A stretch of 64,000 nucleotides of DNA from an uncultured Myxococcales bacterium (GCA_964013405.1 CAXGWI010000001.1:50402-114401), one strand, 5' to 3'; counted from the stretch's first letter, positions 1-57,134 are shown. The notes: generated by a model not told the origin, from the letters alone. Numbers and translations are program-made.

Positions 1-2027
1 TCCAAGGCCGGCCGGCCTTGGGGCAGGATACGCAGACTCGTTGGTTTCGGCGAATCGACCGTGCCCCCCACCGCATCCATCTGCAGCGTGATGTAATCCT
101 GTCGAGCCCGTTGGTTCTGAGACATTTCTACCGTTCGTACCCGACACGCGCGCTGACCGGCCGGGACTCGGCCTACAACGAACTCAAGTTCATTCAGGGA
201 GCCATGGGCACTGACCGTCCGGCCATGAACACGGTAGAGATCACTGTCCGATGGATTGACCACACAGAGTTTTAGGTCGACCGACTCACCGGCCTGCACC
301 TTGCCTTGCACGGAAAGTTCGGCCCGAGCCTTCACCCCTTGGCCACGATCCGACGGGGACGGAGGCTCCCAGGCGATCTCTTGTGACTTAAGGGCCGCGG
401 TAATCAGCGCATCCTGTTCGAGACGAACACGATCGAGTTCTTGGGTGATTCGACGGTAGAAGGTGTCGGCCTTCGCTGCACCGCCGGTGAGGAGCAGGCG
501 GCGAGCCAAGCGAATCTCGAAATCCTCGGCGATCTCCCCAGCATTCTCCTGCCGTGTCTGCTCATCCTGATCCATCGCTTCTTCGGCGAGGTAGGCGATG
601 GTGGACCGCACCCGCTGGGCCTGGGTCGAGCCGTGGTCGAGACTGCGATTTAAGTCGGACTCACGGGTCGTCTCCGGGGGCCTTAGGGCGATGAAATCTT
701 CCTCAACTTGAGCGGCCTGTAGACGGATATCGGGGACGATACCCGTCCCTTGGATGCTCACGCCTCCAGGTGTCAGGTAGTGGGCGATGGTTAACTTCAG
801 CGCGGTCCCTTCCACCTTGGTCCGACGGGGATGGAATGGAATGATCGTCTGGACGGAGCCCTTGCCGAAGCTCTGCTGCCCGAGCAGCAGCGCCCGCCCA
901 TGATTTCGAAGTGCGCCGGCCACGATCTCTGAGGCGGAGGCCGACCCAGCGCTCAAGAGGACAACGATGGGCAGATCTGTAAGCGAGCCCGCCTCGTGGG
1001 CATAGCGGGGCTGGCTCATCTGGTCGCCAAAACCTTCAGTGGTGACGATGACTCCCTTGTTCAAGAAGAGGTCCGAAATACTCACTGCCTGCTCAAGAAG
1101 CCCACCTGGGTTATCCCGGAGGTCGAGAATCAGGCCCTTGGTCGCGCCGCCTTGGCGCATCTTCGCCAGGGCTGTGACCGCCTCATCGGTGGTGTTTTCT
1201 CGAAAACTCTTCAGTCGCAGATAACCGACACCATCCCCGAGAATCTTATGGCTGACGGAGCGCACTTTGATAATTCGGCGAGTCAGTTCTTTCTCGATGG
1301 GCCGCTGGGCACCTTTACGACGAATCTGAATCGTCACCTTGGTTCCAGGCCTGCCACGCAACAGCCCGACCGCCTCTTCGAGGGTCATGTTTTCCGTCGT
1401 CTCATCGTTGATTTGAATGATCTGATCACGGGCCCGAATACCGGCCTTCGACGCCGGGGTATCTGGTATGGGCGAGATGACAGTAAGCCAACCGTCTCGT
1501 TGCCCAATCACAATCCCCAAGCCACCAAACTGCCCTTGGGTCGATACCTTCATCTCTTCGTACTCTTGTGGAGAGAACATGACAGAGTGAGGGTCGAGCG
1601 TACCAAGCATGCCATTGATGGCCTTGAGCTCGACGTCTTGAGCTTTGACATCCTCAGGCAGGTGGAGCGCGACGTAATCCAGAGAGCGCTTCAAGGTCAT
1701 GAAGGCTTCCCAGATGGACGCCATGCGTTCCACATTCAACGTCAAGGGAGGCGCACCAACCATCTGCAAATAGACCTGGCCAGGCAACTTCGACTCGTCA
1801 AAAACCAACTCTGGGACCACAGACTCCACACTGCGGAGCGAATGGGTCACCATTTCCTTCGGCTGAAATCGAGCCGGCTTCACGTAGCCCTTGGTCAGTT
1901 CGAGGATCGCCCAACTCAACTGCTCGGTCGCGCGCAGTTGCCGAGCCTCCTCCTGCTGAGACATGACCCCAAGAACAGGGTTCAGGCTGTTGGCGACGAG
2001 GTAGACCAGAAAGAATGAGTTAAGCAT
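1..2027 (-). CDS. S41-family carboxyl-terminal processing protease (Ctp/Prc-like); the C-terminus runs off the window edge
   Basis: Manual translation of the minus strand from the ATG at 2027-2025 gives MLNSFFLVYLVANSL... with a PDZ region. The S41 catalytic motifs GLILDLRDNPGG and SASASEIVAGAL...GKGSVQ are present. The frame stays open to position 1. It is absent from the ORF track only because no stop codon falls inside the window. The plus-strand ORF 996..2018 is its shadow. Confidence 0.85.
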   Translation of the reverse strand, partial: MLNSFFLVYLVANSLNPVLGVMSQQEEARQLRATEQLSWAILELTKGYVKPARFQPKEMVTHSLRSVESVVPELVFDESKLPGQVYLQMVGAPPLTLNVERMASIWEAFMTLKRSLDYVALHLPEDVKAQDVELKAINGMLGTLDPHSVMFSPQEYEEMKVSTQGQFGGLGIVIGQRDGWLTVISPIPDTPASKAGIRARDQIIQINDETTENMTLEEAVGLLRGRPGTKVTIQIRRKGAQRPIEKELTRRIIKVRSVSHKILGDGVGYLRLKSFRENTTDEAVTALAKMRQGGATKGLILDLRDNPGGLLEQAVSISDLFLNKGVIVTTEGFGDQMSQPRYAHEAGSLTDLPIVVLLSAGSASASEIVAGALRNHGRALLLGQQSFGKGSVQTIIPFHPRRTKVEGTALKLTIAHYLTPGGVSIQGTGIVPDIRLQAAQVEEDFIALRPPETTRESDLNRSLDHGSTQAQRVRSTIAYLAEEAMDQDEQTRQENAGEIAEDFEIRLARRLLLTGGAAKADTFYRRITQELDRVRLEQDALITAALKSQEIAWEPPSPSDRGQGVKARAELSVQGKVQAGESVDLKLCVVNPSDSDLYRVHGRTVSAHGSLNELEFVVGRVPAGQRACRVRTVEMSQNQRARQDYITLQMDAVGGTVDSPKPTSLRILPQGRPAL

Positions 2028-2034
2028 GGGATCT

Positions 2035-2691
2035 CTAAGCTGGAGCCGGAGGAGGGTCACCGAGAATAGCAGTCGTGAAGCGCTCCGCACCAGCTTCATC
2101 CACCTCACCGGACTGAAAGGCGGTGTCGAGCAATCCAGAGAGTTTCTCCAGATCAACTCCTTTAACGACTGGAACCGAAATAGATTCTGGCAGACCTGCT
2201 TCGGCATCGGCCAGACTCATGAGCCAACGGTGCACATCATCCAATGCCAGTTCCGTCTCGGGCTCCAGCCAGCGATTCAAACGTTGCACAAGGGCTTCGA
2301 CGCTCGACGCCTGTTGCCAAAGACTAAATGGGTGAATGGCGAGTTCTTGCATTTCGGGTTCTGGGTCGGCTGCGAGGGCCACATCGACCAACTCGGCATG
2401 GAGCAGACCGAAGCCGATACCAAGCCGCATCAGCGGACCTAGAATGAAGTGATCCCGATCTTCATGGCGGATGAGACGATTAACGACCTCGAAGAAGTCC
2501 TGCCCGTGGAGACGATCCGCCCAGGCCTTCCCCATGGGCTTCGGATCGAGTCGAGGACAATTGAGCAGTAAAACACCGAGACAGGCCATATCCGGGTTGC
2601 GCTTCAAAGCCTCAGCGGTCCGGCCACCGGCCGGCAAGACCTTTAAGTTGGCCTGTAGCAGGGCCAAATGAGCCAGCGGGTGAAGGGACAC
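2035..2691 (-). CDS. hypothetical acidic protein; start uncertain (GTG at 2691 or ATG at 2589)
   Basis: The ORF 2035..2937 runs on the minus strand. Its N-terminal 60-115 codons overlap the aldolase gene, so the real start must be internal. The C-terminal part (…DPEPEMQELAIHPFSLWQQ…GEVDEAGAERF…) has plausible protein composition. Only 7 nt separate its stop from the downstream protease ATG. Confidence 0.45.
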   Translation of the reverse strand: MSLHPLAHLALLQANLKVLPAGGRTAEALKRNPDMACLGVLLLNCPRLDPKPMGKAWADRLHGQDFFEVVNRLIRHEDRDHFILGPLMRLGIGFGLLHAELVDVALAADPEPEMQELAIHPFSLWQQASSVEALVQRLNRWLEPETELALDDVHRWLMSLADAEAGLPESISVPVVKGVDLEKLSGLLDTAFQSGEVDEAGAERFTTAILGDPPPAPA

Positions 2692-2746: not shown

Positions 2747-3397
2747 CTAGGGCAAAAGTGACGGCGCTGCGAGACCCGCGCGCCGATGCTTATCCGATAA
2801 TGCCTCGATCTCCTCGGGTGGCAACCGGGTTGGTCCGCCCAAAGGAACCGACCGCAGCGCGATCGAAGCCAGGTGCTCAAGAAGTTCCATCCGAGCCAGT
2901 GCCATGGTGAGATCAAGGCCCCAGGCGAGCGGACCATGACCCATTAGGAGGGCTGCATTGGCTGCGCGAGCAGCATCGTGGACAGCCTGGCTCATGCCCT
3001 CTGCGCCCGGTCGATGATAAGGAACGTGGGCGATCTTCGGCCCGAGACTCACGATGGCCTCCGGCATAAAATCGATCGCCAGTTCACGACCACTCACAGC
3101 GAAAGCCGTCGATGAAGGCGCATGACAATGGATCACCGCCCCCATCCCGGGTCGAGCTTGAAACACGGCCCGATGCAACTGCCATTCACTAAACACGCGA
3201 TGCCGCCCCGAGAGTACCTTCCCGTCGATATCGATCACCAGCAGATCGGCCGAGCCGATGTCCCCTTTGCGGAAAGCGGTCGGCGTGACCAGAAATCGAT
3301 TGCCTGGGAGGCGCATGCTGATGTTGCCGTCATGATTGGCAACAAAGCCTTTTTGGTCGAGCCATTGGCAGGCCCTCAGCAACTCCTCAGCGCTCAC
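2747..3397 (-). CDS. class II aldolase/adducin-family protein (fuculose-/ribulose-phosphate aldolase-like) with a C-terminal extension
   Basis: A 216-aa protein. The motifs GFVANHDGNISMR, VIHCHAPSSTAF and MGHGPLAWG are typical of the class II aldolase fold and its His metal ligands. Its ATG overlaps the stop of the upstream BMC-P gene (ATGA). Confidence 0.85.
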   Translation of the reverse strand: MSAEELLRACQWLDQKGFVANHDGNISMRLPGNRFLVTPTAFRKGDIGSADLLVIDIDGKVLSGRHRVFSEWQLHRAVFQARPGMGAVIHCHAPSSTAFAVSGRELAIDFMPEAIVSLGPKIAHVPYHRPGAEGMSQAVHDAARAANAALLMGHGPLAWGLDLTMALARMELLEHLASIALRSVPLGGPTRLPPEEIEALSDKHRRAGLAAPSLLP

Positions 3398-3645
3398 GCG
3401 GTCGTCACCTCGTCGACGATCCCGATGATCAATGAGCGAACAGGGGGCTGCCCCCCCAGGATCTGCCGGACCCCGTTGCCCTCCCGCATCACGAGAACTC
3501 GTTCGCCCGGCGCCGCACCGACGCGATCAACGGCGATCAAGTCTTCGTCGCCATGCTCAGGACGAACCATTTTGATGGGTAAGCCATCGTAGCCAGGATG
3601 GTGCTGATCAGCGGTCACACTGCCGAGGACCTTGGCGATGATCAT
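3394..3645 (-). CDS. bacterial microcompartment vertex protein BMC-P (EutN/CcmL/PduN family), copy 2
   Basis: An internal Met start gives MIIAKVLGSVTADQHHPGYDGLPIKMVRPE…RVLVMREGNGVR…LIIGIVDEV (83 aa). This is a typical Pfam PF03319-like pentamer protein. The ATGA overlap at 3642-3645 with the upstream paralog was verified in the sequence (tcat on the plus strand). Confidence 0.8.
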   Translation of the reverse strand: MIIAKVLGSVTADQHHPGYDGLPIKMVRPEHGDEDLIAVDRVGAAPGERVLVMREGNGVRQILGGQPPVRSLIIGIVDEVTTA

Positions 3646-3917
3646 CCCTCCACCTCCCGGTGTGCATCGTCCACAATACCGATGACGGCCAGATCCACCG
3701 GCACGAAAGTCGGTCGACAACCAAGAGCAGCCTCTCTGCTGCCAACAAGGACCACTCTTTGTCCCAGCGAACTGCTCACCGTATCAACGGCCACCTCGAG
3801 CCCCCCCAAAGGCCTACCGTCATGATCTTCCCGCTGCACCAATCGGAACGTGAAGCCATTCATGGAAGGGAGCTTCCTCGTCGCCACAACGGTCCCTTTG
3901 ATCACACCGAACTGCAT
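3642..3917 (-). CDS. bacterial microcompartment vertex protein BMC-P (EutN/CcmL/PduN family), copy 1
   Basis: MQFGVIKGTVVATRKLPSMNGFTFRLVQ…VVLVGSREAA…AVIGIVDD is the canonical EutN/CcmL N-terminus and length (91 aa). An AGGAG Shine-Dalgarno lies 8 nt upstream, inside the 3' end of the preceding gene. Confidence 0.85.
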   Translation of the reverse strand: MQFGVIKGTVVATRKLPSMNGFTFRLVQREDHDGRPLGGLEVAVDTVSSSLGQRVVLVGSREAALGCRPTFVPVDLAVIGIVDDAHREVEG

Positions 3918-3922
3918 GCAGG

Positions 3923-5899
3923 TTATCTCCTAGGTAACTTCAACGGGATGATAAACACGGCGGGATCACCGGGGAAAGTGGGGAAACGCCAACGCTGAGC
4001 CCGATTGATGATACATTTCGTCACCGGCAGGCCTTCGTACACTGGCGTTAATGCCGAGACCGAACTGACCCGCCCCGTGGGCTGGACGGTCAATTCAAGC
4101 TTCAACTCACCGTGCAGGGCCTCTTGTCGTGTCATGGCCCGGGAGGCGCAGTTGTTGAGGGCTTTGATCCCTCGCTTGAAGACCCGATTGATGTCCTCCG
4201 CATCGAGTTCGGACTTTCTTCCCGGTTGCGGTGTCAGTCGGACCTTCGCCAGTGGAATACGGACGGTCCCGAGGGCCTCTTGCAAGGTTGCCATGCGACG
4301 TAGATCGGAGTCACTCACCTTCGCTTTTTGACGAAGTTCCCGCTCCCGTCGAACAGCTGGGTCTTCATCCACCTTGCGCTTCTTCGTCTTTGCGGATTTC
4401 CGACGCCGCTTCGAGGCCGCTTTCTGCTGGGCCTCCGCCGCCCGTTCCTCCTCCTCGATCGCATCCATCTCAGCCTGAATCAGATGCTCTCCCGAAAGGA
4501 ACTGCATCAGGGCCTGGTGGTCTTCCGCAGCAATCGATGTGCCCTTGCGGTATGCGAGCACTTTCGCCGGCTGGGCCGGGTCTCCATAGGTCGTTCGAAT
4601 CGTGTCGACGACCGGCAACTTAATGATGTCGGCCATGGCGATCTCGGCGAGCGCCGAGGAACTGAAAGGCTTGAATGTGGGGTGACCCTGGGGGCAGTCA
4701 AAGTCATCCGCCATGGTCGCTCCGGCATCCGCTCCCGCCGGAGCTAAACTTTCACAGCCTCGGAAATTCGCCGTTCCAATGCGCACCTGAACCAAGTCGC
4801 CGGGGATCGCCTTGAGATCGACGAGGTAGTTTTGCTCCTCAAAGAGTGGGGCCCAGGCCAGGCGTTCTGAAATACCGGCCCCAACCACCATCCTCTCCCG
4901 TAGACTCGCCCCGGCCGCATCGCCAAGAACCAATAGGCGAACGAAGCTGCGCCGGCCAAGTTTGTTGACGCTCTCCACGGTCATGCCTCCTTGGCCAAAG
5001 GGCGAAGGCAACCAGCCCAGCGTCACACTCCCCACGTAGCCAAAGATCATCAGGACCAGGGTCAGAAGAATAATAAGACGACGACGCTTGCCCTGCTCAA
5101 GACCACTGGCCAGCAAAAACATCCGGGTTTCTTCACCGATCGTGTTGCTCGTCGACTCACTCAGGTCGACATGGTCCGATGCGACGGCAGGGCTGGGCTC
5201 CTGTTCAGCGTGCCCACCGAACGGTGTCGATGGCCCCGTTGCGGACGGTTGCGCCTCGACCACCGGCTGCACACCACTGACCCCTGGCTCTTGAACGGGC
5301 GCAGACGAGGAAGCCTCGCCACGGGATTCACGCCGACGGGGAGCCGGGGATGAAGCCTCTGCTGCCCGTTGGTCCGGTGGCCCATCATAGGTGGTTGCAT
5401 CGGGATCGATGGGCCCCGAAGACTCGACCTGGGCCTGACTACCTTGACCGGCCTCGTCGACGAAGACGGCGAGTTCGGGCAGATCTCGAACGGGGCGCCA
5501 ATCCCCCATGCCCGCGTGCCAGGCGTGATCCGTCGGACGAAAACGCCCCTCGCGCAAGGCCTGGGCAACCTCCGACTCCCCCATAGGGCCGTAACGCTGC
5601 CCCTCCCGAGCCAGGTACCACTTCTTAGGGACGGGACTTTCATCAGCCCCCGACGAGTTACGAGAGAGAAAGGCCCGGAGATCGTGGGCAGAGATGCTGT
5701 CCATCGAGCCCATCGACCGGGCCGGGTCACGGACGACCATGATCTCCTGACAGGCCCGGCAACGGATTTTGAGGATCCGCCCCCGAACTGTATCGTCGGA
5801 GATGCTGTATTTTGCGCCGCAGTGCTCGCAGCGAAACTTCACGTGGCGTGCACCCCAGTCATCCGTCCATCTTATAGAGGAGATGGACGGAACAAACAA
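3923..5899 (-). CDS. GltJ/AgmX-like protein with an N-terminal MJ0042-type zinc ribbon, a GYF-like domain, a single TM helix, a K/R-rich linker and an AgmX/PglI-type C-terminal domain
   Basis: The zinc ribbon is FRCEHCGAKY…IRCRACQ. The GYF-like region is WYLAREGQRYGPMGESEVAQALREGRF…HAWHAGMGDWRPV. The TM helix is LIILLTLVLMIFGYVGSVTLGWL. The C-terminal domain reads …NNCASRAMTRQEALHGELKLELTVQPTGRVS…CIINRAQRWRFPTF. This architecture matches the myxobacterial gliding-motility protein GltJ (AgmX). Confidence 0.7.
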   Translation of the reverse strand: MFVPSISSIRWTDDWGARHVKFRCEHCGAKYSISDDTVRGRILKIRCRACQEIMVVRDPARSMGSMDSISAHDLRAFLSRNSSGADESPVPKKWYLAREGQRYGPMGESEVAQALREGRFRPTDHAWHAGMGDWRPVRDLPELAVFVDEAGQGSQAQVESSGPIDPDATTYDGPPDQRAAEASSPAPRRRESRGEASSSAPVQEPGVSGVQPVVEAQPSATGPSTPFGGHAEQEPSPAVASDHVDLSESTSNTIGEETRMFLLASGLEQGKRRRLIILLTLVLMIFGYVGSVTLGWLPSPFGQGGMTVESVNKLGRRSFVRLLVLGDAAGASLRERMVVGAGISERLAWAPLFEEQNYLVDLKAIPGDLVQVRIGTANFRGCESLAPAGADAGATMADDFDCPQGHPTFKPFSSSALAEIAMADIIKLPVVDTIRTTYGDPAQPAKVLAYRKGTSIAAEDHQALMQFLSGEHLIQAEMDAIEEEERAAEAQQKAASKRRRKSAKTKKRKVDEDPAVRRERELRQKAKVSDSDLRRMATLQEALGTVRIPLAKVRLTPQPGRKSELDAEDINRVFKRGIKALNNCASRAMTRQEALHGELKLELTVQPTGRVSSVSALTPVYEGLPVTKCIINRAQRWRFPTFPGDPAVFIIPLKLPRR

Positions 5900-5953
5900 A
5901 AGGGTTTGTCCTGTAAGGATGTTTTAGGGGACATCAGGCCTTAGGGAGGTGGT
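5900..5953. promoter_or_regulatory. 54-bp divergent intergenic region, expected to hold promoters for the gltJ-like/BMC operon (minus) and lptF (plus)
   Basis: This is the only non-coding gap bounding the 5' ends of both operons. No motif was confirmed. Confidence 0.3.
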
Positions 5954-7015: not shown

Positions 7016-8085
7016 CGCACTTGATGATCCCGCTGGCGAGCCACCTAACGAGAGTCCTCACGGTCACGCTCCTGATTTTAATCTCCGGTTGGCTCGTGGT
7101 GGATGCAGCCGAGATGGGACGCCATATGGTTGAAGTCGACGGGGCCGTCATCTTCGATCTCTACAGTTATCGCCTCCCGGTCTTCCTCCATCGACTCACC
7201 CCAGTGGCGATGGTCCTTGCCGCGGGCCTGACACTTGGCACCTGGGCCAGTCGACGCTACCTCCAAGCATCGGCTGCCCTCGGCGCGGAGATTCATGCGC
7301 CTGCGCTCCTCGTCACCCTCCTCCTCAGCCCAGTAGCCATTTTTTGGGGCTGGGCCGGAACCGACGCGATCCCCCGTATGCACAAACAGCAGAACGAGAT
7401 CCTCTTCGAAAAGTTTCGGATTGGCGGTATCCACTACTGGAACCTGCACCAGCCGACCGGGCTCTTGCTCGAGCCCCCATGGCTCGTCCGCTTCAAACCG
7501 GAAGGTCCCACGCGGATTCGGGACGTCGAAGGCGTTCGACTGCGACGGGGCGAAGTTCTCGGCCTTGTTTTCGCACCCACTGCAGAACGAATCGGCCGCG
7601 ACTGGATCGCGCCGGAGATCACCCATTCTCACTATCGCAAAGGAAAGCTGATCCAGCGGGTTCGCTCCAATGGAACATTGCCCTTTTTAGATACAGGAAT
7701 GAGCGTGAGTCACGCCCTTGGCTTTCCCGAGGAGTTCGGCAGCGACGAACTCAGCGAAGTGGCCCACCGAGCGAAATTGGCAGGTAGTGACCCCCGGGCC
7801 TACAACTACGAGGCCTGGCGGCGCCCCTCGAGCGTCCTCTTGCTCCTTTTAACCATGCTCACTGCCGCGATGATCGGCGCCCGAGTCCCCACCGGTAGTG
7901 GTTTCAATCTCATCCTCGCCCGCTCCGCCATGTGTGCTGCATTTTATGAGGCCTTCGCATTTTTCGGCGCGGCCTTGGGCTTGATCATTCCCCGGGGCAG
8001 AGAAGCCATCGCTGCTTGGCTGCCGATCTTTCTTATTGCCATATTTGCGAGTTGGGCTTCGGCCCGACTCGGACGGGCCCGCTGA
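7012..8085 (+). CDS. LptF/LptG-family LPS export permease, second paralog
   Basis: A 357-aa protein with the same topology as the upstream gene. The tandem lptF-lptG arrangement is typical. Confidence 0.7.
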   Translation: MTHLMIPLASHLTRVLTVTLLILISGWLVVDAAEMGRHMVEVDGAVIFDLYSYRLPVFLHRLTPVAMVLAAGLTLGTWASRRYLQASAALGAEIHAPALLVTLLLSPVAIFWGWAGTDAIPRMHKQQNEILFEKFRIGGIHYWNLHQPTGLLLEPPWLVRFKPEGPTRIRDVEGVRLRRGEVLGLVFAPTAERIGRDWIAPEITHSHYRKGKLIQRVRSNGTLPFLDTGMSVSHALGFPEEFGSDELSEVAHRAKLAGSDPRAYNYEAWRRPSSVLLLLLTMLTAAMIGARVPTGSGFNLILARSAMCAAFYEAFAFFGAALGLIIPRGREAIAAWLPIFLIAIFASWASARLGRAR

Positions 8086-9884
8086 TGTTCGCCGGCGAGA
8101 CATTTGGCGAGTACCGAATCATGGGCAAGTTGGCCAATGGTGGCATGGCATCGGTCTACCTCGCCAGGCACCTGGCCGACGCGACGGCGACGCCGGTCGC
8201 CCTGAAGGTGATGCTTCCGCACCTCCTTGCGAATCCCGACTACCGAGAAATGTTTACGCGGGAAGAGGCAATGGGTCGCCTCCTGACCCATCCCAACGTG
8301 GTCCGCGTGATCGAGCGGGTTGAGTCGGCCGATGGGCAAGCTCTTGCGATGGAATTTCTCGATGGACGCAATTTAATCCAAATCGTTAGTGCGGCGAGGC
8401 GTCGGTCTCAGGCCATTTCTTTCCCCGTCGTCGCCCGAGTCATCGCTGCCGTGTCAAGGGCCTTGGAGCGCGGCTGGACGGCTGTTGACGCCGAAGGACA
8501 ACCCATTCGAGTCATTCACCGGGACGTCAGTCCGGAAAATGTCCTGCTTACCTACGACGGGCAGGTCAAACTGATCGATTTCGGGATTGCAAAACAGACC
8601 CATCGCCCAAGCAACACCCGGGCGGGCCAACTCAAAGGCAAATACAGCTACATGAGTCCAGAGCAGGTCCGGGGCGAGACGCTAGACCACCGTAGTGATC
8701 AGTTCAGCTTGAGCGTCCTACATTACATTCTCCTCACCGGAAGAAAGCCATTTGTCGCCCCCAACGAGGTTGAACTCCTCAAGCTGATTCTTTCAGAAGA
8801 CCCGGTACCACCAAGCCGCATCGATCCCACAGTCCCCGGTGTACTCGAAGAGGTCGCCCTGCGCGGACTCCGAAAGGCGCCGGCTGCCCGTTTCCCCAGT
8901 CATGGCTCCGTCGCCGACGTCCTCGAAGATCGCTACCTGAGCAAATATCCAGCCAAAGAAGCTGATATCGCCCGGCTCATGGAGAGCCTCTTTCCCGCAG
9001 GGAAGGACGCAGTACGACTACGAATCCAGCGCTTGATCGATGCTGAGCAAGAGGCGACGGTCACCGGAATCCGCCCGCCCGTGCCCCCCTTGGAACAGGT
9101 CGAGGACGAATTACTCGAAGACAGTGCCACGATTCTCGAGGGGGCGATTCCGGACCAGCCTACCGCCAACTGGCGGACCAGTTCCAGTTCGGCTCCGCTG
9201 GCCCAAGACCAGACCGAAATCTCGGTCCCCGAAGAGCAGGCGACCGTGCTCACACCCGCTGCTGTTGATGTGATCCCGCCACCGCGACGGCCGGCCACCC
9301 ATCACCGGGGTTCTCATCATGTCACCGGCTCCCACTACAACCTCAGCCCCTCTTCATTCTCGCCGGCCACCGCGGGCCTGGCCCTCTTAGCGGTCGCCGC
9401 ACTGCTCGCACTCTACTTCTCGTTCTCCGAAGATCGCAGTGAGGTGGCGACGGTGCAGAGTGGCCAAGGTACGCTCATCGTTCGGGCCTCCACCGGACAG
9501 GCCGAGGTCCGAATCAACGCGGAGCTCATCGGCTCGACCCCAATTGAAAAGCAACTGCGAGCGGGACGAGTCAGTGTCCTCTGTAGTTTTCGATCCCGAG
9601 AGGTCGTTCTGAAGAAACGAGTCGACGTCATGGCCGGACAACGAACTGAGACGCTCTGCCAGCTCGGCCACGCTGATTTAGAGGTCAATGGGCCAAAAGG
9701 CTGGCAGGTTCAGGTCGATGACAAACCCCTCCAGTCCCCACCCGTGCGCCTTTCCAAACTTCTCGAGGGAAGCCACCGGATCGAGTGGGTCCGGCAGACC
9801 GATGGTCACAAGGAGGTACGCCGCTTACGACTGCAAAGGGGCGAGCGAAAAGTCGTTGATGGCTTTGAGGGCTTAGATCGATGA
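8085..9884 (+). CDS. Hanks-type Ser/Thr protein kinase with a C-terminal TM helix and an extracytoplasmic domain
   Basis: Kinase motifs present are GKLANGGMASVY…ALKV, HRDVSPENVLL, DFGIAK and SYMSPEQ. The start is taken as the MFAGETFGEYRI Met at 8085 (TGATG overlap with the lptG stop) rather than the track start at 8016. A TM segment lies near LALLAVAALLALYF. Confidence 0.85.
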   Translation: MFAGETFGEYRIMGKLANGGMASVYLARHLADATATPVALKVMLPHLLANPDYREMFTREEAMGRLLTHPNVVRVIERVESADGQALAMEFLDGRNLIQIVSAARRRSQAISFPVVARVIAAVSRALERGWTAVDAEGQPIRVIHRDVSPENVLLTYDGQVKLIDFGIAKQTHRPSNTRAGQLKGKYSYMSPEQVRGETLDHRSDQFSLSVLHYILLTGRKPFVAPNEVELLKLILSEDPVPPSRIDPTVPGVLEEVALRGLRKAPAARFPSHGSVADVLEDRYLSKYPAKEADIARLMESLFPAGKDAVRLRIQRLIDAEQEATVTGIRPPVPPLEQVEDELLEDSATILEGAIPDQPTANWRTSSSSAPLAQDQTEISVPEEQATVLTPAAVDVIPPPRRPATHHRGSHHVTGSHYNLSPSSFSPATAGLALLAVAALLALYFSFSEDRSEVATVQSGQGTLIVRASTGQAEVRINAELIGSTPIEKQLRAGRVSVLCSFRSREVVLKKRVDVMAGQRTETLCQLGHADLEVNGPKGWQVQVDDKPLQSPPVRLSKLLEGSHRIEWVRQTDGHKEVRRLRLQRGERKVVDGFEGLDR

Positions 9885-17656: not shown

Positions 17657-17938
17657 TCAGGCCAACGAGTCGAGGGCCTGGGCCACCAGTTCTGCGACTT
17701 CACGCAGCGTTTCAGGCGGCTGATCCGGTGGTTCGTTCAAGAAGACTTGGAAGTGATTTTCCACCTCAAGGGCGAAGTTGAGCAGGCCCATACTATCGAG
17801 ACCGAGATCAGCTTGGAGGCGTGTTGACGGTGCCCAGTCTCCTGGAAGTTCGCAGTGATCCCGCAGGATCATGACCAGGTCTGAATGGATTTCGGCGAGG
17901 CGCTCAGGGGATGAACCGCCCCCTGTTTTCAAAGGCAT
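17657..17938 (-). CDS. stand-alone acyl carrier protein
   Basis: The phosphopantetheine attachment motif DLGLDSMGLLNFALEVE sits about 45 aa after the Met of MPLKTGGG…. The track ORF begins earlier (18007), but that N-terminus would overlap the methyltransferase gene. Confidence 0.7.
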   Translation of the reverse strand: MPLKTGGGSSPERLAEIHSDLVMILRDHCELPGDWAPSTRLQADLGLDSMGLLNFALEVENHFQVFLNEPPDQPPETLREVAELVAQALDSLA

Positions 17939-18464
17939 CGAGATAGCCTCCTGACTGCTCAAGGGCAGCCTCTTCTCGCCCGATGCGATGCCGCAAAAGG
18001 AGCCCATTGGCTAGGCTGAATACGAGGGCTGTCATCCAAGCTCCGCCCAGTAATGGCAGGGCTAAAATCTCCAGTACCACGCCCAGATAGTTGGGGTGCC
18101 GAATCCACCGATAAAGCCCACCCACTTGGGGCGGTGCCTCGGGCAGGATCATGATCGTGACTGTCCACCGCGGCCCAAGGGTCGAAATGGCCTCCCAACG
18201 CAAAGCTTGGCCCACAAGGAGTGCGAAGGCGCTGCTATAGACGAGCCAAGATGGTAGTTCAGTGGCAAAGAACGTGGCCTCGATGACGGCAGCGACCAAC
18301 CACAGGCTATGCAAGGCCCGCATCCAGGGCATCTGCTCTGGTGCGACTTCATAGCCTCCAGAGGCCACGATTTGGGCCTGATGCGTTGCGCTCAGGCGTA
18401 GTTCGGACAATCGCTGTAATCCAACCAGGCCAAGCAGTGCGAGGTAAGCCAGAAGAGGTGACAT
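17904..18464 (-). CDS. isoprenylcysteine carboxyl methyltransferase (ICMT)-family membrane methyltransferase (SrsB/FtpB-like)
   Basis: The RHPNYLG motif is present in a polytopic membrane protein. Its start MSPLLAYL at 18464 shares 1 nt with the PKS stop (18464-18466). Confidence 0.8.
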   Translation of the reverse strand: MSPLLAYLALLGLVGLQRLSELRLSATHQAQIVASGGYEVAPEQMPWMRALHSLWLVAAVIEATFFATELPSWLVYSSAFALLVGQALRWEAISTLGPRWTVTIMILPEAPPQVGGLYRWIRHPNYLGVVLEILALPLLGGAWMTALVFSLANGLLLRHRIGREEAALEQSGGYLDAFENRGRFIP

Positions 18465-19528
18465 CAGCCCACGCGCTCCAAGAGATTCAGCTCGGCACAA
18501 AAAGCCGGTCCCATCGCCGCCATCAGCCCCCGTTGTCCCGGGGGTGGCAAGGCTTTCAGCAATTCATGAAGAACGAACAAAACAGAGGTCGAACTCATGT
18601 TCCCATAGGTGGCCAGACTATCCCAACTCGCCTGCAGGTCAGCCTGACTCAAGCCCAGAGCTTCCTGCATGGCACCAAGGACCTTGGGGCCCCCGGGATG
18701 GGCCACGTAGAAGTCTAAGGCATCTGCGCCAAGGTCAGCATCCCGAAGCAGACCTTCCACCGCAGAGGGAAGCTCCTCTTTCACAAGACTTGGAACCTCA
18801 GGGGATAAGACAACCTTAAAGCCACTATCGACAACATCCCAGCCCATGATCCGCTCGGTCTGCGGGAAGAAGACTGAGCGCGGATGCGACCAGGCCAGTG
18901 GTGCACTCGCCGCAAGCGGATGCTCATCACCAACCATCAGCACGGCCGCACAGCCGTCACCGAAGAGGCCACTGGCGATGATATTGGCCACACTCAGGTC
19001 TTCCCGCTGTAGCGTCAGCGAACAAAGTTCAACGGAGAGGAGAATGCCAGCCTCGCCGGGGTGTCCCCGCAGATAATCCCCCAGCCGGTTCACGCCAGCA
19101 CAGCCTGCGAGACAACCAAGGCCGAACAGGGGCACTCGTTTGGTCGCTGGCGAAAACTCCAGCCGATTCATCACCCGCGCCTCAAGACTCGGGACGGCGA
19201 TCCCCGTGACCGTGGTGCTGATCACGATCGAAATCTCGTCCGGTGCCAACCCGGCCCGGGCCAGCAGGTCCTGAATCGCCGCCTCTGCCATGTCTGTCGC
19301 CACTCGGATCCACGCATCGTTATGGGCGCCAAAGCCATCGAGCGACTCGTAGGCTTCGATGGGCAGCGCAAGATGGCGGCCGCCGACCAGAACATTTCGT
19401 TGAAACTGTTCGATCCGCCCCGGGTTGTAGTAGCGCTCGCCCCAACGCTGAAGGAGGGCAGCGATGAGTTCATCTTGGCTGTATTCATGGGGCGCTAAGG
19501 CCGTTGCCGTCGAATGAATCCGGACCAT
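18464..19528 (-). CDS. type III polyketide synthase (chalcone/stilbene synthase family; alkylresorcinol/alkylpyrone synthase-like)
   Basis: The catalytic Cys context is GCLAGCAGVNRL. Also present are HPGGPKVL and YGNMSSTSVLFVL (the His/Asn triad region). The protein is 354 aa. Confidence 0.9.
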   Translation of the reverse strand: MVRIHSTATALAPHEYSQDELIAALLQRWGERYYNPGRIEQFQRNVLVGGRHLALPIEAYESLDGFGAHNDAWIRVATDMAEAAIQDLLARAGLAPDEISIVISTTVTGIAVPSLEARVMNRLEFSPATKRVPLFGLGCLAGCAGVNRLGDYLRGHPGEAGILLSVELCSLTLQREDLSVANIIASGLFGDGCAAVLMVGDEHPLAASAPLAWSHPRSVFFPQTERIMGWDVVDSGFKVVLSPEVPSLVKEELPSAVEGLLRDADLGADALDFYVAHPGGPKVLGAMQEALGLSQADLQASWDSLATYGNMSSTSVLFVLHELLKALPPPGQRGLMAAMGPAFCAELNLLERVG

Positions 19529-49102: not shown

Positions 49103-50425
49103 TCACGGCCCTCCCGAGGCCCCCTCGCCCCGTGGCGGACTCGATCGGGCCAAAACCTGGGCGAGCAAAGCCTCCCGCCCCAGACCGGCAAGCCCTTCTG
49201 CCTTTAAGCGTCGATACAGGGTCGACCGGCTAACACCGAGGCTCTTCGCCGCCTGCGTTAGATTCCCATCGTGGGCCAGGATCGAGGGCAGCAATCCCTC
49301 CTGGTCCATGGTTTGGGTCAAACCGGAGCCAAAGCGCTCGACCAGACTGAGATGGCCTGGCGAAATCTCCTGACCTTCACACAGGATGGTTGCCCGTTGG
49401 AGACAGTTCTTCAGTTCCCGAACATTACCTGGCCAGGGGTACCGTTCGAGCATCTGACGGGCGGAACCATTCAGGAAATACCCCCCACCATCCCGGTTCA
49501 AAAAAGCCGCCACCAGGCCGGGGATATCCGAGCGGCGCTGTCGCAAGGGCGGAACCTCAAGGGGAAAGACCATCAAGCGATGATAAAGATCGAGGCGGAA
49601 GCGTCCCTCTTTCACCGCCCGCTCCAAATCACGGTGCGTTGCACACACCACCCGGGCAGAAACCGTTCGCTCCCGCACTTCGCCAAGGCGCGTGACCGTC
49701 CCGCACTCGAGGACGCGTAACAACTGGGCTTGAACTTCCAGGGGCATCTCCCCGACCTCATCGAGGAACAGCGTTCCATCACGGGCCGTCTCAAACGCAC
49801 CTGCTCGGTCCCGATCAGCACCGGTAAAAGCGCCCCGCACATGACCGAAGAGTTGGCTTCCCACCAACTGGGTATTCAACGCACCACAGTTCACATTCAC
49901 GAGTTGGCCAGCCCTTCCCGAAAACTCATGGATGGCCCGGGCAACCAGTTCCTTGCCTACCCCCGATTCGCCGCGAATCACCACCGGAACCTCGGTAGGT
50001 GCCACCCGGCGCACCAAGTCGGCGAGTTGTTCCATCACCGGGTGGCTGCCAACGACACCGGGCAAAGAAGAGGAAGAGGACATCCCCTCCGGCGGAAAGG
50101 CCTCAAACAACATCACCACACCGCCGAAACGCAATTCAGCCCGGGCCGGCAGTTGCGCTCGGTCGACCCGGGCACCAGCGACGAAGGTGCCGTTCTTCGA
50201 GCCCAGGTCAACCACCTCCCAGCCCTGGGCGACTTGGCGTAGCTCGGCATGCTTTCGCGACAACCCAACCCCTTGGGGACTGATATCGTTACTCCGATCC
50301 CGGCCGATGCGGAGACATCGGACGGAAAGTGGGCGTCGCAAGACACCTGCGCCACTCAAAAATACCCGCCCTCGAGCCAGGCACTCCCGGGCCATTGAAT
50401 CCGTTTGCCGTGTCGCCATGTTCAC
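49103..50425 (-). CDS. sigma-54-dependent transcriptional activator with an N-terminal FHA domain
   Basis: The FHA domain is …LRIGRDRSNDI…LSRKHAEL…GSKNGTFV. The AAA+ sigma54-interaction motifs GESGVGKE and GAFTGA are present. A C-terminal Fis-type HTH follows. Confidence 0.9.
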   Translation of the reverse strand: MNMATRQTDSMARECLARGRVFLSGAGVLRRPLSVRCLRIGRDRSNDISPQGVGLSRKHAELRQVAQGWEVVDLGSKNGTFVAGARVDRAQLPARAELRFGGVVMLFEAFPPEGMSSSSSLPGVVGSHPVMEQLADLVRRVAPTEVPVVIRGESGVGKELVARAIHEFSGRAGQLVNVNCGALNTQLVGSQLFGHVRGAFTGADRDRAGAFETARDGTLFLDEVGEMPLEVQAQLLRVLECGTVTRLGEVRERTVSARVVCATHRDLERAVKEGRFRLDLYHRLMVFPLEVPPLRQRRSDIPGLVAAFLNRDGGGYFLNGSARQMLERYPWPGNVRELKNCLQRATILCEGQEISPGHLSLVERFGSGLTQTMDQEGLLPSILAHDGNLTQAAKSLGVSRSTLYRRLKAEGLAGLGREALLAQVLARSSPPRGEGASGGP

Positions 50426-50538
50426 CTCCCAGGTCCGAACACGGTAACGCGACTCGCTGCCAATGTCAGCCCTTGGTGACGAGACTCTGGACCTTGGGAC
50501 CCGAGGTTGCTAGCGGAGCCTCGTTGCGAGGAGGACCG
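50426..50538. promoter_or_regulatory. divergent intergenic region between the sigma54 activator and bolA-grxD
   Basis: A 113-bp gap. Confidence 0.25.
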
Positions 50539-50793
50539 ATGGACGAAGCGATGATCAGAGACCGTCTTCTCCAGGCCTTTCCAGGGGCCCATATCGAGTT
50601 GCGTGACCTGACAGGAACCCGGGACCATTGGGGCTGTACCGTCATCACAGAAGCCTTCGAAGGCTTGGGTCTAGTGGGTCGACATCAAGCGGTCTACGCG
50701 TGTTTGAACGACCTGATGGCCGGTGATAGCGCCCCCATCCACGCACTCCAACTCAATACGCTGACGCCCGATGAAATGAAGAGGGGAACATGA
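50539..50793 (+). CDS. bolA: BolA-family protein
   Basis: MDEAMIRDRLLQAFPGAHIELRDLTG…HALQL; the protein is 84 aa. The track ORF's N-terminal extension is unlikely. Confidence 0.8.
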   Translation: MDEAMIRDRLLQAFPGAHIELRDLTGTRDHWGCTVITEAFEGLGLVGRHQAVYACLNDLMAGDSAPIHALQLNTLTPDEMKRGT

Positions 50794-51116
50794 TGAGCCG
50801 AGATGTTCTGGCCGAGATCGATGAAACCGTAAAATCCAATGAGGTCGTCCTGTACATGAAGGGCACCAAAGAGTGGCCACAATGCGGCTTCTCTGATCGC
50901 GTTGTACGCATCCTCCAAGAGCAAGAGGTGGACTTCACGGACGTCAATGTCCTGGCCGACCCAGCCGTCCGCCAAGGGATCAAAGATTATACGAATTGGC
51001 CCACGATCCCCCAACTCTACATTCGTGGTGAGTTCGTTGGCGGTTGTGACATCGTCACGAACCTCCATCTAGGTGGTCAGCTCTCGAGCCTGCTGAACTC
51101 AGGGTCTGAAGGCTAG
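50790..51116 (+). CDS. grxD: Grx4-type monothiol glutaredoxin
   Basis: The CGFS active site is present in KEWPQCGFSDRV. ATGA overlap with bolA. Confidence 0.9.
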   Translation: MMSRDVLAEIDETVKSNEVVLYMKGTKEWPQCGFSDRVVRILQEQEVDFTDVNVLADPAVRQGIKDYTNWPTIPQLYIRGEFVGGCDIVTNLHLGGQLSSLLNSGSEG

Positions 51117-52705
51117 CCTTCCGGACTCCAGCCCAAGCGTCCAACGATGGCCTGGGCCACCCGCTGACCGTCCAGTGCAGCGCTCATGATCCCCCCTGCG
51201 AAACCGGCGCCCTCCCCACAAGGGTATAGGCCTGGGTGACTGGGGCTCTCCAGACTCCTTTGATCCCGCTCGATGCGGACCGGAGCAGAGCTTCTGCTTT
51301 CGGTCGCCACCAGAATCCCCTCGTCGCTCACATAGCCTTTGAGGCGTTCGTCAAAATGCTTCAGTCCCTGCCGGAGACTGTGAAGAAACGACGCTGGAAA
51401 GATGGCTTCGAAACCGTGGGGAACAAGCCCCCTCTGGTAACTGGTCGAGGGTAGGTCCTGACTGAAGCGCCCCGCAACGAAGTCGCCGACTCTCTGTGCT
51501 GGCGCCACGAATTCCCCGCCACCAGCCCGATAGGCCGCCCGTTCCACCCGCTCCTGAAGGGCCATCCCCACCAGGGGGTCTCGGTCCGGCCCGGGGCGTC
51601 CTTCCCGCTGGGCCCAAGCTGCCAGGTCGTCCGGTCGGACGGTCATCACGAGACCGGAATTAGCGTAAGGGGAGTCCCGACGAGAAAGGCTCATGCCATT
51701 GACGACCAGAGCTCCAGGTTCCGTGGCGGCCGGAACGATGTAGCCCCCGGGACACATGCAAAAACTGTAGACCCCGTGGGCCGACGTTTGGGCCGTCAAT
51801 TGGTAGAATGCCGGCGGCAAGTCGAGGGTGACGCAGCGAGCCCCGTACTGGGCTTGATCAACCATGGTCTGGGGGTGCTCGGCTCGCACACCAAGGGCGA
51901 AGTCTTTGGCCCCCAACGCGATCCCCTGCTCCTGACAAAGCCGATAGATATCCCGAGCACTGTGCCCGGTCGCCAGAATCACAGCGGCCGCTTCAACGCC
52001 TCGACCGTCAGCCAACTCGACGCCTGTGATTTGCTTTCCCGCGTCCTGCAAGAATGCGGTGACTCGAGCGCCCCATTCGTATCGTACCCCGCGGGCCTCA
52101 AGATGGGCCCGCAGGGCCATGAGTACTTTCGGCAATCGGTTGGACCCGATGTGTGGCCGACTCTCGTAAAGAATGCGTGCCGGTGCCCCAAAGGCGACAA
52201 GGCTCTCAAGGACACGCTGCACGCCCTGGCGGTCTTTCGAGCGGGTATAGAGTTTGCCGTCGCTAAACGTTCCCGCACCGCCTTCCCCGAAGCAATAGTT
52301 GCTCTCCGGATCCAACTCTCCATCCACACTCAACGCTTTCAAACTACGGCGGCGAGGCTGAACCGGTTGGCCCCGGTCGATGAGAATGGGCTGCAGACCC
52401 GCCTCAAGAAGGGCGAGGGCAGCAAAACTTCCCGCAGGGCCTGCACCGACGACTGCGACGGCGGGGCCCGATGCCTGTCGGTCACTCGGTTGCCAACGGG
52501 GCGCCGGTGTTTCGTCCGCGCCAAAGAGGGCAACCTTCAGGACCCAACTGGGCCGGCGGCGGCGGCGAGTATCTAGACTACGACGAAGCAAGAGAGGGCG
52601 ACCAGAGCGCCCCAACTCAGCACTGAGCAGGGAGACGATCTCCTCCCCCTCTGCCCGACCCAGTGGATGGTCGAGGGGTAAGCGAAGTTCGTGTTCCGTG
52701 GGCAT
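51113..52705 (-). CDS. FAD-dependent oxidoreductase (COG2509-like, NAD(P)/FAD-binding)
   Basis: The Rossmann motif is VAVVGAGPAGSFAAL. GAGTFSDGKL is present. Confidence 0.7.
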   Translation of the reverse strand: MPTEHELRLPLDHPLGRAEGEEIVSLLSAELGRSGRPLLLRRSLDTRRRRRPSWVLKVALFGADETPAPRWQPSDRQASGPAVAVVGAGPAGSFAALALLEAGLQPILIDRGQPVQPRRRSLKALSVDGELDPESNYCFGEGGAGTFSDGKLYTRSKDRQGVQRVLESLVAFGAPARILYESRPHIGSNRLPKVLMALRAHLEARGVRYEWGARVTAFLQDAGKQITGVELADGRGVEAAAVILATGHSARDIYRLCQEQGIALGAKDFALGVRAEHPQTMVDQAQYGARCVTLDLPPAFYQLTAQTSAHGVYSFCMCPGGYIVPAATEPGALVVNGMSLSRRDSPYANSGLVMTVRPDDLAAWAQREGRPGPDRDPLVGMALQERVERAAYRAGGGEFVAPAQRVGDFVAGRFSQDLPSTSYQRGLVPHGFEAIFPASFLHSLRQGLKHFDERLKGYVSDEGILVATESRSSAPVRIERDQRSLESPSHPGLYPCGEGAGFAGGIMSAALDGQRVAQAIVGRLGWSPEG

Positions 52706-52718
52706 CAGATGGCCCCGA

Positions 52719-54878: not shown

Positions 54879-54908
54879 TAAAGCTGGGCCGGGGGGAAGC
54901 CTTGGGGC

Positions 54909-57125: not shown

Positions 57126-57134
57126 GGTCCCATA

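Follow-up and report, generated by a model that had tools for sequence, protein, structure and literature searches.

A zinc-ribbon/GYF membrane-protein gene precedes the vertex-protein genes of an HO-type microcompartment satellite locus

Why does a gene for a membrane protein of a design known from gliding motility stand directly in front of genes for the vertex proteins of a bacterial microcompartment (BMC)? Microcompartments are generally described as free cytoplasmic bodies, and it is the HO (Haliangium) shell that serves as the chief model in structural and engineering studies of their shells. The question is raised by 64,000 nucleotides (nt) of DNA from an uncultured Myxococcales bacterium (GCA_964013405.1, CAXGWI010000001.1:50402-114401), the whole of which we call the window. 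On its minus strand, a gene for a protein with a zinc ribbon (ZnR), a GYF domain, a transmembrane (TM) helix and an AgmX/PglI C-terminal domain (the ZnR-GYF gene) is followed by two BMC-P genes (BMC-P1 and BMC-P2, or P1 and P2) and a class II aldolase gene. An earlier note on this DNA had taken the protein for a GltJ-like motility scaffold. Based on the comparison of related loci, the HO-type satellite operon of many Myxococcota probably begins with the ZnR-GYF gene, as a genuine and conserved member. With less assurance, we also lean towards a functional link between its product and the microcompartment, as an envelope-spanning adaptor or switch for which a mechanism is proposed below.

A total of 89 loci (numbered with the prefix L) was analysed, L113 being counted apart. 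The ZnR-GYF gene directly precedes the BMC-P unit in 26 of the 89 and in L113, in several deep lineages with mostly different flanks. The absence from relatives that the earlier note had named as its own refutation was not what we found: the adjacency is kept at 71% and 39% identity, and also in lineages in which BMC-P1 is only ~53-59% identical and the flanks are mostly different. In the marine lineage to which the window belongs, the order lptG-lptF (divergent), ZnR-GYF, P1, P2, aldolase is kept at 71% (L001/L006) and at 39-40% (L002/L005, L004); in L001 and L002 the aldolase gene is followed by a ~200-aa unassigned gene, a PDZ-S41 protease gene and recA (convergent). As synteny in the marine clade extends over the full 15 kb between TsaD and RecA, this conservation is weak evidence alone. 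One member, L004 (CACGMS010000013.1, single-amplified genome AG-422-L23), is labelled 'Candidatus Hydrogenedens' and carries the same tsaD-kinase-lptGF / ZnR-GYF-P1-P2-aldolase block at 40-72% protein identity, which suggests that the assembly is mislabelled or contaminated.

Approached from the BMC-P1 side, five homologues on long contigs were followed (P0079, P0107, P0046, P0057 and P0106, 52-59% identical; loci L023/24, L025/26, L027/28, L029 and L031). All five lie outside the window clade, and each has a gene with Zn_ribbon_4 and GYF_2 domains directly upstream on the same strand. Downstream of these units are MFS + DeoC + PGM, N6-methylase + RmuC, FtsW + PBP, Metallophos and HTTM genes, and the upstream genes are also partly different. 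The same ZnR-GYF/BMC-P arrangement is found in L113 (P0144), which was reached by a search with the L031 protein. In L031 the aldolase gene is absent and an HTTM-domain protein gene (L031:8616-10319) takes its place, with the order ZnR-GYF/P1/P2 intact.

A metagenome scan with a BMC-P1 alignment gave 80 P1-P2(-aldolase) loci. The ZnR-GYF gene is upstream in 17 of them and missing from 51, and 12 are too short to judge; a locus was called as lacking the gene only if it extended at least 450 nt upstream, so that 68 are assessable. Re-checking with domain hidden Markov models built from 33 family members revealed no missed ZnR-GYF genes in the metagenome loci. In a neighbour-joining tree of concatenated P1+P2, loci with the ZnR-GYF gene sit on long branches to either side of the midpoint root, and those lacking it make up a single shallow high-GC clade, densely sampled, and a small group of four. 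It is in this shallow clade that the aldolase bears the C-terminal extension described below. Since the loci without the gene come mostly from that one clade, the locus counts are not frequencies; by phylogenetic depth the association is the rule and the absence the exception. The high-GC clade without the gene has conserved neighbours of its own, whose clustering was swamped by spurious long open reading frames (ORFs).

The arrangement of the genes in the window, and of the sequences between and before them, is as follows:

3923..5842, minus strand: coding sequence of the ZnR-GYF-TM-AgmX/PglI_C protein, GTG start, TAA stop, 639 aa
3927..3931, minus strand: AGGAG Shine-Dalgarno (SD) sequence for BMC-P1, within the last two Arg codons of the ZnR-GYF gene
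3642..3917, minus strand: BMC-P1, 91 aa, EutN/CcmL pentamer family (EutN_CcmL, 76.2 bits)
3394..3645, minus strand: BMC-P2, 83 aa, ATG 3645, ATGA overlap with the BMC-P1 stop (EutN_CcmL, 65.0 bits)
2747..3397, minus strand: class II aldolase, 216 aa, without a long C-terminal extension (Aldolase_II, 151.6 bits)
2035..2691, minus strand: 218-aa protein, 55 nt past the aldolase, without a Pfam or NCBIfam match
1..2100, minus strand: PDZ + peptidase S41 protein, running off the window start (Peptidase_S41, 169.3 bits, + PDZ); its own start near 2100 is approximate
5843..5953, no strand: intergenic region of 111 nt separating the ZnR-GYF gene from the divergent lptF, the only promoter-sized gap upstream of the operon

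The ZnR-GYF gene ends in CCT AGG AGA TAA (..LPRR*). Its TAA (3925-3923) is separated from the BMC-P1 ATG (3917-3915) by the spacer CCTGC (3922-3918), and AGGAG lies 9 nt before that ATG. The earlier note had therefore described this junction correctly, in the 5-nt distance, in the ribosome-binding site embedded in the last codons and in the tight coupling to the BMC-P genes: the 5-nt gap is followed by two 4-nt overlaps, the second of which (GTGA) joins the aldolase start, GTG 3397, to the BMC-P2 stop. In L001 the equivalent SD site is GAGGAGG; in L002 and L004 it is AAGAG or AAGAGG. Throughout the marine clade the end codons for LP(R/K)R double as the BMC-P1 SD (window 3926-3934; L001:11880-11892; L002:11893-11904); because these conserved codons serve both, the C terminus of the ZnR-GYF protein and the translation signal of BMC-P1 are under joint constraint. 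Across the 26 loci, the distance from the ZnR-GYF stop to the P1 start ranges from -1 to 140 nt and is 11 nt or less in 14.

The 5' end of the gene needs to be corrected. The longest ORF, 3923-5899 on the minus strand with a TTG start, corresponds to the 658-aa protein and the promoter-sized gap of 54 bp (5900-5953) of the earlier note, and neither holds. The true start is almost certainly GTG 5842, with a predicted N terminus MKFRCEHCG... / MKFRCEHCGAKY and a length of 639 aa, because three observations agree: six homologues all begin at this position with their first eight residues invariant (alignment A1), the public protein P0001, identical to that of the window, has 639 aa, and in the relative L001 the called ZnR-GYF gene and the divergent lptF gene are 112 nt apart. 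The divergent gap in the window is accordingly 111 nt (5843-5953). This region also contains an 11-bp perfect inverted repeat, TCCGTCCATCT ... AGATGGACGGA, at 5862-5872/5881-5891 with an 8-nt spacer, which could be an operator or a hairpin of the 5' untranslated region; L001, the relative at 71% identity, does not share it.

In a pattern scan neither a terminator nor a sigma-70 promoter turned up convincingly between the operon genes, though a scan of this type could miss an internal promoter. Weak terminator-like hairpins inside coding sequence (8 vs 3.1 expected) and one promoter-like site within the aldolase gene were given no weight. Concerning the two genes past the aldolase, the 218-aa protein is 73-74% identical to its L001 and L006 orthologues, and unannotated genes for 200-214 aa occupy the same spot in the marine clade (L002, P0020 contig). 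The PDZ-S41 orthologues have 956-1003 aa in L001, L002 and the P0020 contig; the window gene overlaps the 218-aa gene. As L001, L002 and the P0020 contig share the order through the PDZ-S41 gene, the operon may be longer in this lineage.

What kind of BMC locus is this? In the BMC catalogue the HO-type I satellite is described as two BMC-P genes and a pfam00596 aldolase gene apart from BMC-H; the type is found mostly in Deltaproteobacteria, the aldolase lies on the satellite in 24 of 30 type I loci, and the native function of the organelle is termed 'enigmatic' (Sutter et al. 2021, PMC8217296). As the type is defined, its main locus lies elsewhere in the genome and comprises BMC-H, BMC-T, a third BMC-P and an aldehyde dehydrogenase with an N-terminal encapsulation peptide. 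Judged from the 64-kb window, the BMC-P1/BMC-P2/aldolase unit matches this HO-type satellite locus, with which it has in common the two BMC-P genes, the pfam00596 aldolase gene and the lack of a nearby BMC-H gene. Close homologues come from marine metagenome-assembled genomes named Myxococcales or Myxococcota. The PDB matches of BMC-P1 include the H. ochraceum BMC-P of 5V74 (E 3e-10), and the BMC-P2 orthologue in L001 likewise has 83 aa. The satellite BMC-P genes of H. ochraceum are, we presume, Hoch_4425/4426. A tblastn search with a PduA-type BMC-H query gave only chance matches of 10-11 aa at E <=10 in the window and found none in the 89 related loci; since no BMC-H gene is nearby, all of them are regarded as satellite loci.

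The lack of BMC-H within 64 kb and in the 89 loci would also be expected if the EutN-fold pair and the aldolase built no microcompartment at all and instead took part, together with the membrane protein, in some other envelope process with the pentamers as adaptors, and the aldolases of the ZnR-GYF loci, which have no extension resembling an encapsulation peptide, would suit that as well. We consider it improbable: a missing nearby BMC-H gene is the definition of a satellite locus, P1 and P2 score as ordinary members of EutN_CcmL, far above the threshold, and the catalogue's HO type I satellite has the same genes with the main locus elsewhere and the aldolase on the satellite in 24/30 (PMC8217296). 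The claim of the earlier note that the combination is part of no described BMC locus has to be narrowed. The BMC-P/BMC-P/aldolase set is the described HO satellite, and only a ZnR-GYF membrane protein goes unmentioned in the catalogue's text and supplements as far as they were searched, the locus figures lying outside that search (PMC8217296); in the present loci it is encoded by the tightly coupled first gene in 26/89 and in L113. The literature text searched likewise contained no association of a microcompartment with a GYF domain, prior depiction in figures being possible. To the extent that this text covers the subject, the conserved ZnR-GYF/BMC-P pairing and its complementarity with the aldolase tail, described next, appear to be the new element, the kinds of component being already known.

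The aldolases differ according to whether the ZnR-GYF gene is present. With it, 20 of the 21 complete aldolases have 214-230 aa and no C-terminal extension, and they mostly end in conserved ..LLEARKKAGLGPK or ..LSDKHRRAGLAAP. Without it, 26 of 29 have 268-304 aa and three lack an extension. The extension consists of 50-80 aa, with an Ala/Pro-rich linker and a terminal amphipathic helix (..DLAAVVREEIVRALRK). The tails that were set against that of the window aldolase are:

C-termini of L042, L044, L048, L050, L051 and about 28 further metagenome loci, against window 2747-3397: aldolases of loci without the ZnR-GYF gene

An amphipathic terminal helix of this kind resembles the encapsulation peptides known. 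The exceptions are L084, which has both the extension and the ZnR-GYF gene, and L047, L062 and L065, which have neither. The association of tail and ZnR-GYF presence gives Fisher p = 7e-10, a value that is uncorrected and dominated by one clade. In the catalogue about one third of the HO satellite aldolases have a possible encapsulation peptide, the extension being 'possibly an EP' (PMC8217296), so that aldolases with and without an extension are mixed both there and in the present loci. The pattern fits, without proving, the reading that the aldolase is handled either by the ZnR-GYF protein or by means of a self-targeting tail, the one standing in for the other.

Could the adjacency instead be an inherited neighbourhood? 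The cassette would have landed once behind a general envelope gene, whose promoter it uses, and have stayed there by inertia. This is the main rival, and we hold it to be possible though doubtful. The wholly syntenic marine block would follow from it, but in other lineages the downstream and sometimes the upstream flanks are completely different (MFS/DeoC, FtsW, Metallophos, HTTM, N6-methylase, LptFG), and the adjacency persists although the ZnR-GYF proteins are only ~24-29% identical in alignable regions. Several clades share a gap of only -1 to 5 nt with the SD lying inside the upstream coding sequence, and in L031, which is without the aldolase, the BMC-P pair is still accompanied by the ZnR-GYF gene. 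A large clade in which the cassette lacks the ZnR-GYF gene speaks for inheritance; the loss of the adjacency, however, coincides with the gain of the encapsulation-peptide-like aldolase tail. That a homologue bearing the juxtamembrane motif (L115) stands alone also suits inheritance, as does a further gene. In many high-GC loci a FYDLN_acid (PF09538) zinc-ribbon/acidic-tail gene adjoins the ZnR-GYF gene, directly upstream and often divergent:

L023:6327-6623, L027:5732-6010, L029:5943-6206, L031:5961-6218 and L113:5568-5852, minus strand: FYDLN_acid genes

It is found likewise in L043, L049, L071, L107 and L112 and is absent from the marine clade of the window, where lptF is in that position. 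The FYDLN_acid gene could be a further functional partner or old synteny.

The conserved first-gene position, which we continue to prefer to explain by function, leads to the protein itself. Its parts, from the N terminus, are the following:

5729..5842, minus strand: MJ0042-type zinc ribbon, aa 1-38, cytoplasmic (Zn_ribbon_4, TIGR02098)
5660..5713, minus strand: linker motif MGSMDSISAHDLRAFLSR, aa 44-61, between ZnR and GYF, mostly invariant in A1
5471..5620, minus strand: GYF_2 domain (PF14237, Pfam), aa 75-124, cytoplasmic
5141..5443, minus strand: disordered linker, aa 134-234, ~14% proline, with a predicted local distance difference test score (pLDDT) of 28-42 in the AlphaFold2 (AF2) model, gapped and variable in alignments
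5078..5140, minus strand: juxtamembrane motif IGEETRMFLLASGLEQGKRRR, aa 235-255, orthogroup signature
5012..5077, minus strand: single TM helix, aa 256-277 (Kyte-Doolittle maximum 2.39 over 19 aa)
4547..4957, minus strand: clade-specific alpha/beta domain past the TM helix, aa ~296-432, presumably periplasmic (alignment, AF2)
3941..4207, minus strand: AgmX/PglI C-terminal (TonB-C-like) domain, aa 546-634 (NF033768)

The architecture of zinc ribbon, GYF domain, TM helix and AgmX/PglI domain given in the earlier note is confirmed by Pfam, NCBIfam, hydropathy, AF2/Foldseek and PDB matches. Zn_ribbon_4 scores 42.0 bits (cutoff 30.3) at aa 1-34, and TIGR02098, the MJ0042 zinc finger, scores 23.3 bits (cutoff 20.9); the ribbon has two CxxC pairs, of which C5, C8, C28 and C31 are invariant in A1, and its best PDB sequence match is the ZnR domain of GltJ/AgmX (7ZOK, E 2e-4). 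In the linker, which is ~36 aa long from ZnR to GYF, AF2 predicts a short helix (aa 52-61) flanked by low-pLDDT segments, and TRxMDxxxLxxL-related motifs are found in other BMC-linked homologues. GYF_2 scores 56.2 bits (cutoff 25.8) over the full model length; the top PDB match of this domain by sequence (E ~2e-4) and by fold is the GltJ GYF domain 7Z3C, and the Smy2 GYF domain is matched in fold too.

The AF2 model was built on six sequences and has a mean pLDDT of 62, the zinc ribbon, GYF domain, TM helix, alpha/beta domain and C-terminal domain being folded at pLDDT 75-91 and aa 134-236 disordered; 7Z3C is also the top Foldseek match for the whole model. One long helix spans aa 238-275. The alpha/beta domain (pLDDT 80-88) is restricted to the marine clade and missing from the other BMC-linked homologues in the alignment. 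It carries invariant Cys363 and Cys383, the latter in FDCPxGHPTF, and Foldseek gave no significant PDB fold match for it. Concerning the C-terminal end, which the earlier note had called TonB-C/AgmX-PglI, the assignment rests on the NF033768 score (58.6 bits at aa 546-634, cutoff 40) and on fold similarity to FusB, TonB and HasB (Foldseek probability ~0.92-1.00, target-normalised TM-score ~0.37-0.54, root-mean-square deviation ~3.4-8 A, E ~1e-2), and not on Pfam TonB_C, which the window protein does not match at E <=0.01; a phmmer comparison with the TonB C-terminal domain was marginal (E 0.08-0.16).

Is the protein then GltJ, or a functional duplicate of it that binds MglA and AglZ and links the focal adhesions of motility to the microcompartment? 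The four-part architecture is the same, the PDB top matches of both cytoplasmic domains are those of GltJ (E ~2e-4), and the GltJ model is the top NCBIfam match by E-value. Yet the GltJ equivalog NF033761 was rejected as an identity, with 79.7 bits against a cutoff of 450 (54-115 bits in six other BMC-linked homologues), and the linker of ~36 aa is far from the 95 aa of GltJ. The gene's neighbours are lptF/G, a Ser/Thr kinase gene, tsaD, the two BMC-P genes and the genes for the aldolase and the PDZ-S41 protease; among the larger ORFs of the window scanned, Pfam, whose coverage of Glt proteins is limited, named no glt, agl, mgl or other gliding family. Outside Myxococcales, moreover, ZnR-GYF proteins are uncorrelated with MglAB or AglZ (PMC11135422). 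Such a GltJ role is therefore very improbable, and the motility-scaffold reading of the earlier note finds no support. The ZnR-GYF protein is not GltJ but belongs to a separate orthogroup of the same architectural class.

The BMC-linked members of this class have a common plan: ZnR, linker, GYF, a long Pro/Ala-rich spacer, one TM helix, a variable region and AgmX/PglI. Their linkers usually contain a (D/E)x(S/T)Rx(M/V) motif, and NF033768 scores 42.7-61.6 bits in five of six other homologues, L023 being without the domain; the L023/L024 protein (397 aa; L023:6765-7958) ends in a Pro/Ala-rich tail. High-GC BMC-linked proteins match one another over their full length. The juxtamembrane motif, GE-x-T-R/K-x-F..G (IGEETRMFLLASGLEQGKRRR in the window, PPGEATRFFIAQAGVNKRNPPWK in the high-GC group), is common to the window clade and to most other BMC-linked proteins, is degenerate in L023, L025, L060 and L084, and is missing from the kinase-adjacent paralogues L008-L020 and from Lujinxingia L114. 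The linker helix AHDLRAFLSR was considered as an encapsulation-peptide-like shell binder and is kept as a lead only; a comparable helix is found in several BMC-linked clades and in the non-linked L115, and it is missing from L027, L029, L107 and L112.

A genome scan for ZnR-GYF genes, which used the motifs MKFRCEHC and RGR[IV]LKIRC only, returned mostly the kinase-adjacent paralogues (L008-L021). Among those without BMC-P genes, L009, L011, L013-L019 and L021 show a Ser/Thr protein kinase gene, or two, lying some kb upstream of the paralogue (upstream of position 8001), and the divergent lptFG operon of the window includes a gene (8016-9884) for a PEGA-domain Ser/Thr kinase. There may be a connection between such kinases and ZnR-GYF membrane proteins.

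A number of observations weigh against the operon membership and the functional link that we favour. The adjacency is missing from 51 of the 68 assessable related loci, so the BMC-P/aldolase unit does not universally need the ZnR-GYF protein, and to our knowledge recombinant HO shells assemble without it. Paralogues of the same architecture without BMC-P neighbours are common (L008-L021, L114), and the window-clade protein is about equally distant in sequence similarity from linked and non-linked relatives. Orthology across clades thus depends on a short juxtamembrane motif and on gene position, and since L115 bears that motif with a pseudouridine synthase gene downstream in place of BMC-P genes, membership of the orthogroup does not always entail the adjacency. 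Inherited synteny could account for part of the conservation, because the upstream FYDLN_acid gene is also conserved in the high-GC lineages, and because one clade dominates, few independent events lie behind the complementarity with the aldolase tail. Finally, co-transcription is a reading of the gene layout, and physical contact with BMC proteins is a hypothesis.

If the link is functional, the following mechanism may be proposed. The protein is a predicted single-pass inner-membrane protein whose TonB-C-like domain, past the TM helix, is periplasmic by analogy with GltJ. By the same analogy, the cytoplasmic ZnR-linker-GYF part would serve as a protein-binding adaptor or switch, and it would most likely bind a component of the shell or its cargo, either the vertex pentamers or the extension-less aldolase. 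The TM helix and the TonB-C-like domain would anchor the protein in the envelope and reach towards the wall or the outer membrane. As an outcome, the protein would tether the organelle to the inner membrane or position it there, or would make the capping of vertices or the recruitment of cargo depend on an envelope signal. Taken to its full extent, this would mean that the HO-type metabolosomes of many Myxococcota are envelope-connected, a GltJ-like switch docking the shell to the inner membrane via its pentamers or via the peptide-less aldolase; we regard this full form as speculative and, as it stands, unlikely. If true, this would make the protein the first partner of a bacterial microcompartment to be integral to the membrane, and a signal or force sensed by the TonB-C-like domain would be coupled to the closure, cargo loading or position of the organelle.

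An envelope-spanning adaptor gene before two of the three vertex-protein genes is a testable handle on the HO organelle, and it raises the questions of membrane contact, of regulated vertex capping and of the recruitment of an aldolase without an encapsulation peptide. Even if the link is one of synteny only, an annotation is corrected: these proteins are not to be called GltJ.

Elsewhere in the window, the Pfam scan of larger ORFs also named a glutamate dehydrogenase, murJ, aroA, a type III polyketide synthase and an FHIPEP protein. The type III polyketide synthase gene (chalcone/stilbene synthase-like) overlaps a downstream ICMT-family methyltransferase gene, the two forming a small secondary-metabolite pair (17904-19528, minus strand). 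The FHIPEP (FlhA/type III export gate) protein is encoded at 52719-54878 on the minus strand. Near it (49103-57194, minus strand) are genes for an FHA-sigma54 activator (49103-50425), a Wzz/tyrosine-kinase-like protein (54909-57194) and an FAD-dependent protein. Of the window ORFs scanned, the FHIPEP gene was the only one recognised as flagellar or injectisome-related.

How does the protein compare with known systems? Non-shell, non-enzyme positioning factors encoded with shell genes are known from carboxysomes (McdA/McdB) and from Pdu microcompartments (PduV). The type of role resembles the one proposed for the ZnR-GYF protein, no homology being implied; McdA/McdB and PduV are soluble, of ParA type or small-GTPase type, and act on the nucleoid or the cytoskeleton, and none of them is known to be integral to the membrane or to end in a domain like that of TonB. 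The N-terminal TM anchor, extended linker and ~90-aa C-terminal fold of TonB/TolA-type proteins (TonB, FusB, HasB) also resemble parts of the window protein, whereas the latter has a 235-aa cytoplasmic adaptor region that TonB lacks; no ExbBD/TolQR motor genes were found among the called genes in the neighbourhoods with gene tables.

The closest likeness is to GltJ (AgmX) of the Agl-Glt machinery of M. xanthus, which has the same order of parts: MJ0042 ZnR, motif-bearing flexible linker, GYF, spacer, TM helix and AgmX/PglI. The two differ in the length of the linker (95 aa in GltJ, ~36 aa in the window protein), in the ~140-aa domain that the window clade has in addition past the TM helix, in the juxtamembrane signature, which is peculiar to the orthogroup of the window protein and sets it apart, and in their partner genes, which are glt genes for GltJ and BMC-P genes here. 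The ligand of the GltJ GYF domain is the proline-rich region of AglZ, MglA-GTP is bound by the 95-aa linker and by neither ZnR nor GYF, and the ZnR binds the linker or MglB; ZnR-GYF modules have been proposed as versatile switches, with other ligands probable elsewhere (PMC11135422). The present loci offer a second cellular context for this ZnR-linker-GYF switch module, understood so far only in gliding motility, and with it candidate partners.

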